Shown here one piece after another: positions 8,009-48,002 of a stretch of 64,000 nucleotides of DNA. This stretch comes from a phage. Numbering within the stretch: position 1 is the stretch's first letter; the number at the start of each line of letters is the position of its first letter. The position numbers and the translations under genes were made by a program. The stretch lies in the sequence record PZ179882.1. One strand, written 5' to 3'. Below the pieces are notes generated by a model. It did no database searches. It was not told the DNA's origin and saw only the letters and a program-made list of their open reading frames with translations.

Positions 8009-8695
8009 TTAAAAGTCGTGGGTAGAATCGGCTTCAAGAGCTACTACATAATTCGCGTGTTCACCTTCAAATTTAGCAGCACCTTGTTTACCTTTTGCCC
8101 AGAGCAGAAGTTTATAATTTCCTGGTTGCATTTTCATATTTGCCATATTGATAATGAAATTAAATGTATTTTCACCATCATAATCACCAAGAGTCAAAGA
8201 ATATTTAACACGGGTCAAAGCAGAATCTTCTACTTTATTAAAACCGTTAATTACGATTTTACCTTCTTTTACTGTGATAGCAATTGTATCAATCTGCAGA
8301 CCACGAGATACACGCAACAGTTGTTGAAGGTCTTCAGCTTTAATTTCAGTAACAACAGATGCTACCGGGAATGGAATTGGTTTATTAGGAGCAACTACTG
8401 TACTCGGATCGGCTGCTGGCCAAAAAATTGTTGAGCGGGCATCAGCAATTTTAATATTTCCATCTTCTGACTGGGAAATTTCTGCATCATCATTAACTAG
8501 AGACAGAATACCGAGAAAACCGTTCAAATCGTAAATTGCTACATCAAAATCAATAACGTCAGAAATATTTGCTTCCGCATAAGTTGTACCATTAACTGCG
8601 CGAGTCATAATAAATTGACCGGATTTAAGCATAATACCAGAGTTAATAGTAGCGAAATTTTTAAGCAGAGCAGTAGTATCTTTAGACAGTTTCAT
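8009..8695 (-). CDS. 45: sliding clamp gp45
   Basis: 228 aa starting MKLSKDTTALLKNFATINSGIMLKSGQFIMTRAVNGTTYAEANISD, recalled T4 gp45. Confidence 0.93.
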   Translation of the reverse strand: MKLSKDTTALLKNFATINSGIMLKSGQFIMTRAVNGTTYAEANISDVIDFDVAIYDLNGFLGILSLVNDDAEISQSEDGNIKIADARSTIFWPAADPSTVVAPNKPIPFPVASVVTEIKAEDLQQLLRVSRGLQIDTIAITVKEGKIVINGFNKVEDSALTRVKYSLTLGDYDGENTFNFIINMANMKMQPGNYKLLLWAKGKQGAAKFEGEHANYVVALEADSTHDF

Positions 8696-45141: not shown

Positions 45142-45705
45142 TTATTTACCTAGTTTACTTATTATAGCTTCTGCAGCAGCTTTTAGCTTAGATGCAGTGT
45201 TAATACGATTTTTAATTTCAGTATACGCATCGCCAAGAACATCAAGGCTATCAGAATAAACACTTACACTATTGCGTTCGCTATTTGAAATAGAACCTTT
45301 AGTTTTGCGGTCAAAATCGGTGTACACGTCTTGAAGATCGCGGGCTGCCTTCTTTGCATCATCCAATGCATCAAGAGCTTTATTCAAAGCATTAACGTAT
45401 TTTTTAGTGTCGAACATATTCTTAGAAATTTTAACAGGTGCGCGTTCAGGAGTAGCTAACACAGATTTAGGAACCTGAGCGCCAGATGCCAATTTCTTAG
45501 AAATTTTGAAAAATGCTTTATTGAATTTATTTTCTTGACTCATTGTAAAAGAACTATTATCGATGTTGTACATTTCAATAGCTTTAGCTTTCCACTTAAG
45601 AAAATCGCCGCGGTCTTTTGGGTCCAATTGGAAGAATACTTTAGTAAGATCTGCTTCAGATGGTAATTTTGCTGCTTCGGTTAAAAATTCGGCATAGGTT
45701 TTCAT
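45142..45705 (-). CDS. internal protein (ipIII-like)
   Basis: 187 aa starting MKTYAEFLTE, the internal-protein capsid-targeting leader; size near T4 ipIII. Confidence 0.6.
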   Translation of the reverse strand: MKTYAEFLTEAAKLPSEADLTKVFFQLDPKDRGDFLKWKAKAIEMYNIDNSSFTMSQENKFNKAFFKISKKLASGAQVPKSVLATPERAPVKISKNMFDTKKYVNALNKALDALDDAKKAARDLQDVYTDFDRKTKGSISNSERNSVSVYSDSLDVLGDAYTEIKNRINTASKLKAAAEAIISKLGK

Positions 45706-45797
45706 TTAAAATCCTTGAAATAATTTATCGGTTGGTTATTAATTATTTATTACTTTGTTACTATCCGTAACAGCGTTATCCGAGTGATTCAAACTAA

Positions 45798-45827
45798 AAA
45801 GCCCCAACCTTTCGGTCGGGGCTAAGA
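45798..45827 (-). terminator. intrinsic terminator (GAAA-loop hairpin plus U-tract), copy 1
   Basis: Plus strand aaaaagccccaacctttcggtcggggct; the minus-strand RNA forms a 10-bp stem with GAAA loop followed by UUUUU. Identical 33-bp element at 46349-46381. Confidence 0.65.
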
Positions 45828-45830
45828 ATG

Positions 45831-46304
45831 TCATTTGATTTGTTTAGCAGACCAAATGCGGTCTTTAATAATTTTTTGGATGTCTTCAACATACTCAAGA
45901 GAGTGAACATGTGGATTATCTTTGAAACTATAAGCACGGGCTAACTTTTGGCCTTCGGTTTTGATTACTAAAAGCTCTTTAAGGATAGCTTCATATTTAG
46001 CGATAATTCCTTTAACGATATTTTTTTCTTGTGCCGCTTTAGGATCTGCTTTAGGAGCAGGTTTACCCGAAGCCTTTGCAAAAGCAGCGCCAGTAGCAAC
46101 TAAACTTTTCCAGGCCATACTAACTGCATTTCCCGTAAATCCTTCCGCTTTCATGTCGCGTGCAAACTGGAATCGCGATTCATCAGAAGCATCTTTATAG
46201 GAATATTTACCCGCGGCAATGGCAGCTTTTGCAACAGCTTGAATTTCGGTGCTAGATGCTTCATTTAACACCGCTTCATTTAAAAATTGAGTATATGATT
46301 TCAT
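45831..46304 (-). CDS. internal-protein-like gene
   Basis: Start set to ATG at 46304 (MKSYTQFLNEAVLNE) preceded by AGGAAA. The ORF-track 216-aa version reads through a terminator and late promoter. Confidence 0.55.
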   Translation of the reverse strand: MKSYTQFLNEAVLNEASSTEIQAVAKAAIAAGKYSYKDASDESRFQFARDMKAEGFTGNAVSMAWKSLVATGAAFAKASGKPAPKADPKAAQEKNIVKGIIAKYEAILKELLVIKTEGQKLARAYSFKDNPHVHSLEYVEDIQKIIKDRIWSAKQIK

Positions 46305-46342
46305 CTTATTTCCTGTTTTAATTTGTAGATTTAATATACTAA

Positions 46343-46350
46343 TATTTATA
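46343..46350 (-). promoter_or_regulatory. late promoter (TATAAATA)
   Basis: Plus strand tatttata about 40 nt upstream of the ip-like gene start. Confidence 0.5.
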
Positions 46351-46351
46351 C

Positions 46352-46381
46352 CAAAAAGCCCCAACCTTTCGGTCGGGGCTA
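46352..46381 (-). terminator. intrinsic terminator, copy 2 (identical to 45798-45827)
   Basis: Same 33-bp hairpin plus U-tract element. Confidence 0.65.
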
Positions 46382-46687
46382 AGCCTTGCGGCAACCTTGT
46401 CGGGGTTCCACCTGCTAAGGCAAGTGTTTGTACGAAACGCCGGGATTCGAACCCGGTTATTAAGTAGTTGACGCTACTCAATATTTTTAAAAGGCCATAT
46501 CTCGACCATATCCGAACGTTCCGTCAAAAACGCTACTCGGCTTACGGCAAAGATATTTCCTCGAATCGATAATTCGGTGCGCCGTTTCTGCTGTGATAGT
46601 AAAGAGCCAGAACACAGTAAAACTGTGGGAGGAAACTATACTCCAGGGAACATCAGTCCGACGACTTACCGGTAGCGACCCGGTTTC
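46381..46687 (-). ncRNA. candidate structured non-coding RNA region (tRNA-like T-arm; possible stable RNA)
   Basis: About 300 nt with no ORF of 60 aa or more on the minus strand. Contains CCGGGTTCGAATCCCGG (T-arm-like), a possible acceptor pairing CGGAACG/CGTTTCG, several hairpins, and ends at a strong terminator. Confidence 0.35.
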
Positions 46688-47038
46688 TTAATATTCTTTT
46701 AAAGAATCAATATATTCACGGCGTTTACGCCACAAATCAATTGCTTCATACGCGGATTCAGCATTTCGAATTAGCCGGCATTTATGTAAAGACTTATGAT
46801 TTTGATATTGTGTAGATAACGGAATTGTATCTAAAAGGTCTTTACGATCAAAATATTCGTAACCATCTAAACCAAATGAACGATTTTTGAGAAATTGCCA
46901 ATGACCATATTCGTTTTCGACATAAACATAATCTGCATGCTGATAAAGCAAATTAATTACACGTTCAGAAATAACAGTATCATTATGATTAAAATAGAAT
47001 GTTAAATCATGAACTACTAAATAAACATTACCTTTCAT
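46688..47038 (-). CDS. hypothetical protein
   Basis: 116 aa; strong ribosome-binding site GAGGAAA; immediately downstream of tRNA-Arg. Confidence 0.5.
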   Translation of the reverse strand: MKGNVYLVVHDLTFYFNHNDTVISERVINLLYQHADYVYVENEYGHWQFLKNRSFGLDGYEYFDRKDLLDTIPLSTQYQNHKSLHKCRLIRNAESAYEAIDLWRKRREYIDSLKEY

Positions 47039-47056: not shown

Positions 47057-47132
47057 TGGTCGAGGCAGTAGGGATCGAACCTACGACCTAGGACTTAGAA
47101 GGTCCTTGCTCTTCCTTCTGAGCTATGCCCCG
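47057..47132 (-). tRNA. tRNA-Arg (anticodon UCU)
   Basis: Hand-folded cloverleaf: acceptor CGGGGCA/TGCCTCG, anticodon loop CTTCTAA, T-loop TTCGATC, CCA encoded. Confidence 0.8.
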
Positions 47133-47138
47133 TAATTG

Positions 47139-47211
47139 GGTGACCGATGGGAGTCGAACCCATGACTACGAGAATCACAATCTCGAGTTCTACCAACTGA
47201 ACTACGGCCAC
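47139..47211 (-). tRNA. tRNA-His candidate (anticodon GUG), CCA not encoded
   Basis: Acceptor GTGGCCG/CGGTCAC, anticodon stem CGAGA/TCTCG with loop TTGTGAT, T-loop TTCGACT, discriminator C; the 3' flank is CAA rather than CCA and position -1 is U. Confidence 0.6.
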
Positions 47212-47325
47212 ATTAATACCTACTCCAACAATCAAGATGTCTTCACACGAAATTAAGAGAAGAGTGATCAGTTCAACCCCTATAATCGCGTCAAGTAGAT
47301 ATTAATGTGACAGTTGTCACAAATT

Positions 47326-47400
47326 TGGCGGACGTGATAGGATTCGAACCTATAACCAATCGCTTAACAGGCGATCGCTCTGCCATTGAGCTACACATCC
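47326..47400 (-). tRNA. tRNA-Asn (anticodon GUU)
   Basis: Acceptor GGATGTG/CACGTCC, anticodon loop CTGTTAA, T-loop TTCGAAT, CCA encoded. Confidence 0.7.
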
Positions 47401-47404
47401 AAAT

Positions 47405-47491
47405 TGGTGGGGAGTGATGGAGTCGAACCACCCGAGTCGCAATGACAATGGATTTACAGTCCACACCGCTACCTCTACGGGATAACTCCCC
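47405..47491 (-). tRNA. tRNA-Tyr (anticodon GUA), long variable arm
   Basis: Acceptor GGGGAGT/ACTCCCC, anticodon loop CTGTAAA as in bacterial tRNA-Tyr, 87 nt, CCA encoded. Confidence 0.7.
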
Positions 47492-47503
47492 TAATTCGTA
47501 ATT

Positions 47504-47578
47504 TGGTGGCCCTGGGTGGAATTGAACCACCATCTGGCGATTATGAGTCGCTTGCTTGAACCTTCCAGCTACAGGGCC
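47504..47578 (-). tRNA. tRNA with CAU anticodon (Ile2-type or Met)
   Basis: Acceptor GGCCCTG/CAGGGCC, anticodon stem-loop GCGA-CTCATAA-TCGC resembling lysidine-type tRNA-Ile2; CCA encoded. Confidence 0.7.
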
Positions 47579-47579
47579 T

Positions 47580-47655
47580 TGGTGCTGATTGACGGAATCG
47601 AACCGCCGACCTTCTCATTACAAGTGAGTTGCTCTACCTACTGAGCTAAATCAGC
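47580..47655 (-). tRNA. tRNA-Thr (anticodon UGU)
   Basis: Acceptor GCTGATT/AATCAGC, anticodon loop CTTGTAA, T-loop TTCGATT, CCA encoded. Confidence 0.75.
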
Positions 47656-47660
47656 AAAAC

Positions 47661-47750
47661 TGGCGGAGGCGATAGGATTTGAACCTATGAGTCGCCGGAG
47701 CGACTGCCGGTTTTCAAGACCGGTGCATTAAACCACTCTGCCACGCCTCC
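47661..47750 (-). tRNA. tRNA-Ser (anticodon UGA), long variable arm
   Basis: Acceptor GGAGGCG/CGCCTCC, anticodon stem CCGGT/ACCGG with loop CTTGAAA, 90 nt. Confidence 0.8.
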
Positions 47751-47752
47751 AG

Positions 47753-47826
47753 TCTCCGTGGCAGGATTTGAACCTACGACATTCTGCTCCCAAAGCAGAC
47801 GCTCTACCAAACTGAGCTACACGAAG
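47753..47826 (-). tRNA. tRNA-Pro (anticodon UGG), CCA not encoded
   Basis: Acceptor CTTCGTG/CACGGAG, anticodon loop TTTGGGA; abuts tRNA-Ser, like the classic T4 Pro-Ser dimeric precursor. Confidence 0.75.
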
Positions 47827-47836
47827 TAAATTAAAT

Positions 47837-47910
<74 letters not shown>

Positions 47911-47915
47911 AAATT

Positions 47916-48002
47916 TGGTGCGAGAAGTGGGACTCGAACCCACAAGGAAATCATTCCGCAGCATTTTAAGTGCTGTGCCTTTACCAATTTGACCATTCTC
48001 GC
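47916..48002 (-). tRNA. tRNA-Leu (anticodon UAA), long variable arm
   Basis: Acceptor GCGAGAA/TTCTCGC, anticodon stem CAGCA/TGCTG with loop CTTAAAA, 87 nt. Confidence 0.75.

Follow-up and report, generated by a model that had tools for sequence, protein, structure and literature searches.

The 64,000-nucleotide stretch of phage DNA analysed here (sequence record PZ179882.1, called the window below) contains ten tRNA genes on its minus strand, located at 47057-48002 by ARAGORN and followed by rnaD, rnaC and a terminator. The minus-strand interval 46352-46691 has the same gene order as bacteriophage T4, i.e. tRNA cluster, rnaD, rnaC, trailer and terminator (Table 1). BLAST comparison of 46330-46720 with 50,697 phage records yielded 810 matching records, nearly all belonging to Tequatrovirus and related Tevenvirinae, with phage YUEEL01 being 100% identical over the interval; the window itself is a Tequatrovirus. 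T4 (AF158101.6, positions 70825-71168) is about 91% identical over the rnaC/rnaD region, and its record lists in succession tRNA-Arg, rnaD ('small, stable RNA; species 2 RNA', 119 nt) and rnaC ('species 1 RNA', 139 nt). Both RNAs are annotated also in phages Aplg8, RB33, RB10 and ATK47, the Aplg8 record adding the terminator. A three-way alignment resolves the interval, in collinear order, into rnaD, a spacer of 6 nt, rnaC, about 50 nt of trailer and the terminator.

Judged by these comparisons, the interval can be identified as the 3' end of the phage tRNA operon, composed of rnaD and rnaC orthologs, a conserved trailer and an intrinsic terminator. A preliminary description of this DNA, made from the sequence alone, had guessed at a counterpart of the T4 RNAs C and D, and homology, annotation and synteny bear this guess out. 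Its alternative of a distinct tRNA-like RNA is superfluous, because T4 RNA C is itself a tRNA-like RNA. Alignment to the two T4 RNAs, which it had proposed as a check, gives 99.3% identity for rnaC, 97.8% for the 5' 44 nt of rnaD and 100% for its 3' 22 nt. Likewise, the several hairpins claimed in the minus-strand RNA are present; the whole region folds at z = -4.8 and rnaC alone at z = -4.05. Both RNAs have long been on record from T4, as species 1 and species 2 RNAs, and their identification in the window by itself adds nothing new. In T4, RNAC and RNAD were detected as late RNAs, and Northern blotting showed RNAC as a stable RNA of about 140 nt; the RNAC probe oligonucleotide printed in the same paper is identical to positions 46569-46512 of the window (PMC9697503).

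Table 1. Features at the 3' end of the tRNA operon and in its surroundings (positions in the window)
Feature	Position	Strand	Remarks
116-aa ORF, phrog_3355	46688-47038	-	inserted between tRNA-Arg and rnaD
rnaD ortholog (T4 species 2 RNA, 'band D')	46575..46691	-	aligned to annotated T4 and Aplg8 rnaD
rnaD hairpin HP1	46668..46684	-	stem ACCGG/CCGGU, 7-nt loop GUCGCUA
rnaD variable cassette	46598..46643	-	distal part of long irregular hairpin, 46 nt
rnaC ortholog (T4 species 1 RNA, 'band C')	46432..46568	-	C1 to discriminator U73; 99.3% identical to T4
rnaC acceptor stem (P1), 5' strand CGAUUCG	46562..46568	-	pairs with CGUUUCG 46433-46439, 7 bp
rnaC long arm at D-arm position (P2, P3, Pa)	46492..46561	-	about 70 nt; capped by loop UUGACG 46527-46522
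rnaC hairpin Pb at anticodon-arm position	46458..46483	-	10-bp stem, loop CGUCAA 46473-46468
rnaC T-arm CCGGGTTCGAATCCCGG	46440..46456	-	stem CCGGG/CCCGG, loop UUCGAAU
3' trailer of tRNA operon	46381..46431	-	core 46427-46395; three small hairpins
tRNA-operon intrinsic terminator	46352..46380	-	10-bp stem, GAAA loop (46380-46357), U tract; terminator scan
Second terminator copy	45795..45823	-	hairpin 45823-45800, after next gene; terminator scan
Tandem paralogs, phrog_2280	45142-45705 and 45831-46307	-	each followed by the same terminator

The rnaC copy of the window matches that of T4 in 136 of 137 positions, the sole substitution (C versus U) lying in the long arm at 46504. In both phages the gene stands between rnaD and the trailer with its terminator, and its ends agree, so that no material difference distinguishes the window copy. 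For comparative analysis, we drew on annotated phages, IMG/VR and metagenomes, which supplied 27 distinct rnaC homologs representing at least six genera of Tevenvirinae. All of them are situated in or adjoin tRNA clusters. A covariance model scores the window rnaC at 165.7 bits as the only copy in the window, and it finds exactly one rnaC per phage, at 117-166 bits. Two metagenome pattern matches (L038 and L040) were discarded as spurious, the covariance model matching neither.

Comparison of these homologs shows that rnaC has a conserved, tRNA-shaped fold, a four-way junction built of an acceptor stem, a T-arm, a hairpin at the anticodon-arm position and a 70-nt arm at the D-arm position. RNAalifold returned this junction, including P1, from the 27 homologs without guidance, and the minimum-energy fold of the window sequence taken alone equals the consensus structure. 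In the MAFFT alignment of the 27 sequences, P1 pair 3:70 is G-C in 14 and A-U in 13. P1 carries two central U.U mismatches in 25 of the 27 sequences, and these are replaced by U-A and C-G in the TG1 lineage. Covariation is found in 13 of 18 pairs of the long arm, among them all five pairs of Pa, in 8 of 10 stem pairs of Pb and in two of five pairs of the T-stem, which is 100% paired. In the covariance-model alignment, which is itself fitted to the structure but agrees with the MAFFT-based counts, the paired cells amount to 93.5%, and double changes occur in 24 of 40 pairs. None of 500 shuffles reached the observed pairing and covariation values, and slid controls gave 37-50% pairing. The analysis of compensatory mutations across related phages, suggested in the preliminary description, is thus answered by covariation in the rnaC helices themselves.

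The T-arm recognised in that description, CCGGGTTCGAATCCCGG, is indeed present on the minus strand at 46456-46440, and its stem is one of the covarying helices. The acceptor pairing proposed with it has to be revised. Both halves, CGGAACG (46523-46517) and CGTTTCG (46439-46433), do exist and can pair in the window, and the distance of 60 nt from CGGAACG to the T-arm is also confirmed, but their pairing is not conserved: it shows no double change, and one of its positions is broken in 13 of the 27 sequences. It is evidently wrong, because alignment bases 50-54 covary perfectly with bases 39-43 within the Pa hairpin, of which the 5' half of the proposed pairing is a part. CGTTTCG in fact pairs with CGATTCG, located at the 5' end of rnaC.

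The Pa loop UUGACG is the exact complement of the Pb loop CGUCAA, and six Watson-Crick loop-loop pairs are kept in 27 of 27 rnaC sequences. Two compensatory double changes occur among them, UUGAUG with CAUCAA in TG1 and L028, and UUGGCG with CGCCAA in L044, L046 and L047. Conservation of the complementary loops, together with two independent double changes, supports a tertiary loop-loop contact. Such a kissing contact would sequester the loop that stands at the place of the tRNA anticodon. Complementarity of the two loops also explains the repeated motif that had been noticed earlier: GAGTAGCGT does occur twice on the minus strand, at 46538-46530 and 46479-46471. In both copies GAGUAG forms the 5' side of a hairpin stem, and CGU belongs to the stem in Pa and to the beginning of the loop in Pb.

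Like tRNA, rnaC pairs its two ends into an acceptor stem, carries a discriminator base, has a 5-bp T-stem with UUCGAAU loop and a four-way junction, and lies in a tRNA operon. It differs from tRNA in the absence of an anticodon loop (the loop at that place is 6 nt long and takes part in the kiss), in the 70-nt arm replacing the D-arm and in the lack of encoded CCA in most copies. Neither ARAGORN nor the Rfam model RF00005 finds a tRNA in 46352-46691. Ordinary tRNAs match the rnaC covariance model end to end, weakly, at 13-29 bits, and they are its only further hits. No tmRNA was called by ARAGORN in the window, there is no tag reading frame, and no tmRNA family of Rfam matches. Rfam 15 families at gathering threshold detect only the ten tRNAs in the whole window. 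At relaxed threshold (E up to 10), the region 46300-46760 gives only noise, with no match to tmRNA or YrlA and with tRNA-Sec as the best match (17 bits versus a threshold of 47). The Rfam/Infernal scan advised earlier therefore matched no family in the interval at either setting, and Rfam has no family for rnaC or rnaD.

Ends of rnaC agree with its tRNA-like fold. The original T4 record X03016.1 lets species 1 RNA start at C1 and end at U73, just after CGTTTCG. These ends are those of P1 plus the discriminator base, as in tRNA, and they provide independent support for the acceptor helix. Behind the stem, the window encodes U73-ACA-A (T-ACAA), which confirms the earlier remark that CCA is not encoded. 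Among the homologs, position 74 is A, U or C, and C75-A76-A77 are invariant; since N in this N-C-A-A can be C, three divergent rnaC copies encode a true CCA (U-CCA-A). The sequenced T4 RNA is reportedly 140 nt long, which would equal 137 nt plus three.

Acceptor/T-arm mimicry is known from other RNAs. The tRNA-like domain of tmRNA, the bacterial Y-RNA-like YrlA and, among phage RNAs processed by RNase P, P1 C4 and P4 CI all imitate acceptor and T-arm and thereby enter tRNA-processing or tRNA-binding pathways, and rnaC has this mimicry in common with them. In YrlA, the ends of the molecule form a Ro-binding stem and not an acceptor, which is a difference from rnaC.

In the neighbouring rnaD, a T-arm and tRNA-like acceptor were looked for, and no T-arm was found. 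The central 46 nt of rnaD are only 39.6% identical to T4, in between the well conserved flanks, which marks the centre as a swapped, non-homologous cassette. Close relatives, including phages with annotated rnaD, carry at least three unrelated cassette types. All these variants are predicted to adopt one architecture, consisting of a leader, a hairpin and a long rod closed by GUCGUCG with CGGCG(C)AC. The hairpin, HP1, is predicted in every rnaD variant folded, and its closing pair covaries (A-U in 10 sequences, G-C in 5 and G-U in 1). The rod is a weak part of the model, as the fold energy of rnaD is no better than that of shuffled sequence (z from -0.2 to -2.3) and both strands of the closing helix are invariant. 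Records containing rnaD number 746, with identity spread widely; for rnaC, 681 of 748 records reach at least 95% identity.

T4 rnaD resembles the window copy in position, conserved flanks and predicted architecture. It follows tRNA-Arg with a single nucleotide between them, whereas rnaD of the window is preceded by the 116-aa ORF, whose TAA stop overlaps the rnaD 5' end; this ORF has no Pfam match. At the 3' end, the window reads ...GCGCACC-G and T4 ...GCGCACC-A, and species 2 RNA in X03016.1 ends ...GCGCACCA (CACCA). Six nucleotides separate rnaD from C1 of rnaC. Behind rnaD comes the spacer AAUUA, which in KM16 and EcS1 follows the 3' CCA of the tRNA upstream of rnaC, so that the 3' end of rnaD sits at the place of a tRNA 3' end.

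Genetics provides a single hint, from the T4-like phage BW1, where the sole mutation common to three independently evolved lines is a SNP in rnaD, with virulence on strain ECOR34 rising at the same time from 0.17 to 0.98 (PMC12685909). According to the coordinates in that paper, the SNP would lie about 45 nt from the rnaD 3' end, in the cassette or next to it.

Downstream of rnaC, the trailer has a 33-nt core, ACACUUGCCUUAGCAGGUGGAACCCCGACAAGG, which is nearly invariant in 737 phage records, and trailer plus terminator fold at z = -3.9. Further copies of the trailer lie at about 1200-1264 in L005 and about 1320-1365 in L004. The trailer also follows rnaD alone in phages of the IME08/JS98 type, and it is present in VR26, which has neither rnaC nor the 5' half of rnaD. 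Its conservation is independent. By analogy to 3' external transcribed spacers in tRNA operons of bacteria, a third small RNA might be set free here. The 3' external transcribed spacer of the Escherichia coli glyW-cysT-leuZ operon acts as a small-RNA sponge. The trailer alone resembles it, being a structured, conserved segment between the last stable RNA and the terminator that would be released with the terminator hairpin and U tail; it differs in having no sequence similarity to it.

The homologous T4 site is marked as a potential terminator in X03016.1. Duplication of the GAAA-loop terminator after the next gene, as had been described, is real, the common stretch measuring 31 nt exact or 40 nt at 93% where 33 bp had been given. 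Because the downstream genes are phrog_2280 paralogs, the terminator repeat is attributable to tandem duplication of a gene-plus-terminator unit of about 558 bp. Relatives of the phrog_2280 genes also come after the trailer in JS98-type phages.

Distribution over more distant phages shows that rnaD, rnaC and the trailer travel separately, as three modules. Dhakaviruses of the IME08/JS98 type have rnaD followed directly by the trailer, without rnaC. Conversely, rnaC occurs alone in Karamvirus EnA02, Kagamiyamavirus EcS1, Moonvirus KM16 and NM4.3, Tegunavirus TG1 and Gelderlandvirus CF-SP2, placed within or beside tRNA clusters and usually 4-8 nt from neighbouring tRNA genes. Gaprivervirus VR26 retains trailer and terminator and lacks rnaC and the rnaD 5' half. 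No rnaC-like copy was found in 185,579 bacterial and archaeal genomes by two pattern scans, and within the range of these patterns rnaC appears to be confined to phages.

Exchange of segments affects rnaC, too. The interior of its long arm is replaced in CF-SP2, NM4.3, L030 and L044-47, with the capping loop kept. Copies with replaced interior are located at 527-669 in L023, 504-649 in L024, 5144-5288 in L030, 3421-3564 in L044, 1725-1869 in L046 and 12186-12329 in L047. Their helices and UUGRYG loop are retained, as is the remainder of the molecule, and they represent a second case of module swapping in these RNAs.

Established tRNA biology suggests how the two RNAs may arise. Both would be cut from the polycistronic tRNA transcript by the tRNA-maturation machinery of the host. 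RNase P would cut at C1 of rnaC and at the same time free the 3' end of rnaD, which would then be shortened to CACC; the cut after U73 would be made by an endonuclease, or by RNase BN in concert with exonucleases. Finally, the CCA-adding enzyme would presumably complete the 3' ends.

Papers, reviews and omics studies among them, describe rnaC and rnaD as RNAs of unknown function (PMC3014915, PMC9697503, PMC12685909). In the literature covered, with the classical papers of 1975-1985 lying outside the search, 'unknown' was the only statement encountered. Deletion of the tRNA region does not prevent T4 from growing on laboratory strains, and any role of rnaC and rnaD should therefore be conditional.

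The explanation offered here we consider, as a whole, very probable. As to function in particular, we propose with low confidence that rnaC may be a stable non-decoding tRNA mimic that binds a protein recognising the acceptor, T-arm or elbow, with the rnaD cassette as a host-specific module. The bound protein could come from host or phage; one conceivable role would be that of a decoy for a tRNA-targeting defence nuclease. A more specific version is still more doubtful. It supposes that CCA-ended rnaC, its decoding loop locked by the kiss, acts late in infection as a decoy or inhibitor of a host factor recognising tRNA shape, that the cassette sets host specificity and that the trailer is a third RNA. 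Candidate factors would be an anticodon nuclease, another tRNA-cleaving defence, or a tRNA-modifying or tRNA-sensing enzyme. A host-specificity cassette, if true, would explain both the cassette polymorphism and the convergent rnaD mutation of BW1 on ECOR34.

Several other explanations have to be weighed against a tRNA mimic. That the interval encodes a small protein is practically negligible as a possibility. Its sole minus-strand ORF of at least 25 aa (46487-46615, 42 aa, GTG start) has a similar 39-aa ORF in T4, but the start, GTG or TTG, is found at differing positions and the stops differ as well. The ORF begins in the non-homologous rnaD cassette and crosses the rnaD/rnaC boundary, relatives carry 1-nt indels, and substitutions are compensatory in RNA helices. 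We rejected this ORF as a gene, given its start in a segment not homologous to T4 and its different T4 start and stop; the absence of a plausible minus-strand ORF, asserted in the preliminary description, holds, and no conserved ORF emerged among the relatives. It is extremely improbable, too, that the RNAs are functionless decayed tRNA genes kept merely by linkage to the tRNA cluster. Such a decay would account for the tRNA-like acceptor and T-arm, for the weak tRNA matches of the rnaC model and for the failure of ARAGORN and the Rfam tRNA model to accept rnaC and rnaD as tRNAs. It is essentially refuted by the high identity of rnaC over the 748 records and by covariation of 24 of 40 pairs across genera, which extends to non-tRNA helices and the tertiary contact. 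Covariation and identity together indicate purifying selection on structure.

The RNAs could also be purely cis-acting elements for processing and stability of the tRNA operon, without function in trans, the structured 3' modules shielding the transcript from 3' exonucleases and positioning RNase P or RNase E cuts. We hold this to be unlikely, even though rnaC and rnaD are always found inside tRNA clusters or at their 3' end and on the same strand, their ends coincide with tRNA-type processing sites, and T4 tolerates their loss. In Karam-, Kagamiyama-, Moon- and Gelderlandvirus, rnaC stands between tRNAs, where 3' protection is unneeded; a conserved 6-bp loop-loop contact and invariant loop sequences exceed the needs of a spacer, and discrete stable species accumulate in T4 (PMC9697503). 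Somewhat less probable again are trans-acting, base-pairing small RNAs, Hfq-dependent or not, which would regulate host or phage mRNAs via conserved single-stranded stretches or the rnaD cassette. The 3' tail and variable cassette of rnaD could provide seed regions, trailer and terminator together resemble Hfq-binding RNAs in their hairpin and U tail, and papers speak of 'small regulatory RNAs', without data. However, apart from the duplicated terminator and one A/U-rich 12-mer, no complementarity of at least 12 nt exists elsewhere in the 64-kb window, and the conserved loops of rnaC are taken up by the intramolecular kiss.

RNAs C and D belong to the earliest small RNAs of phages to have been sequenced. 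To the old question of their function, the comparative model brings several handles: the kissing-loop junction, the spread over at least six genera, the swapped cassette and the trailer. These matter because anti-phage defences targeting tRNA are now known to be common. The rnaC alignment offers a seed for an RNA family absent from Rfam, and host-dependent phenotypes are predicted.

Some observations concern annotation of these loci. In many GenBank records, the rnaC/rnaD locus is covered by spurious 'hypothetical protein' CDS features. In L048, ARAGORN calls a 95-nt 'tRNA-Met' (8491-8585, minus strand) inside an rnaC copy (8489-8631), which means that rnaC homologs can be mis-annotated as odd tRNAs. 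Within the tRNA cluster of the window, tRNA-Tyr (47405-47491, minus strand) scores 30.2 bits against the Rfam threshold of 29, the other nine tRNAs scoring 59-74 bits. Between tRNA-Asn and tRNA-His, a 114-nt spacer (47212-47325, minus strand) contains neither tRNA nor notable ORF; it holds a short hairpin, GTGACAACTGTCAC, and Aplg8 has a comparable gap. Gaps exceeding 100 nt between tRNA genes occur also in Karamvirus and Gelderlandvirus clusters (L003, 88-220 and 375-485; L023, 752-990), and these might hold further unannotated structured RNAs.
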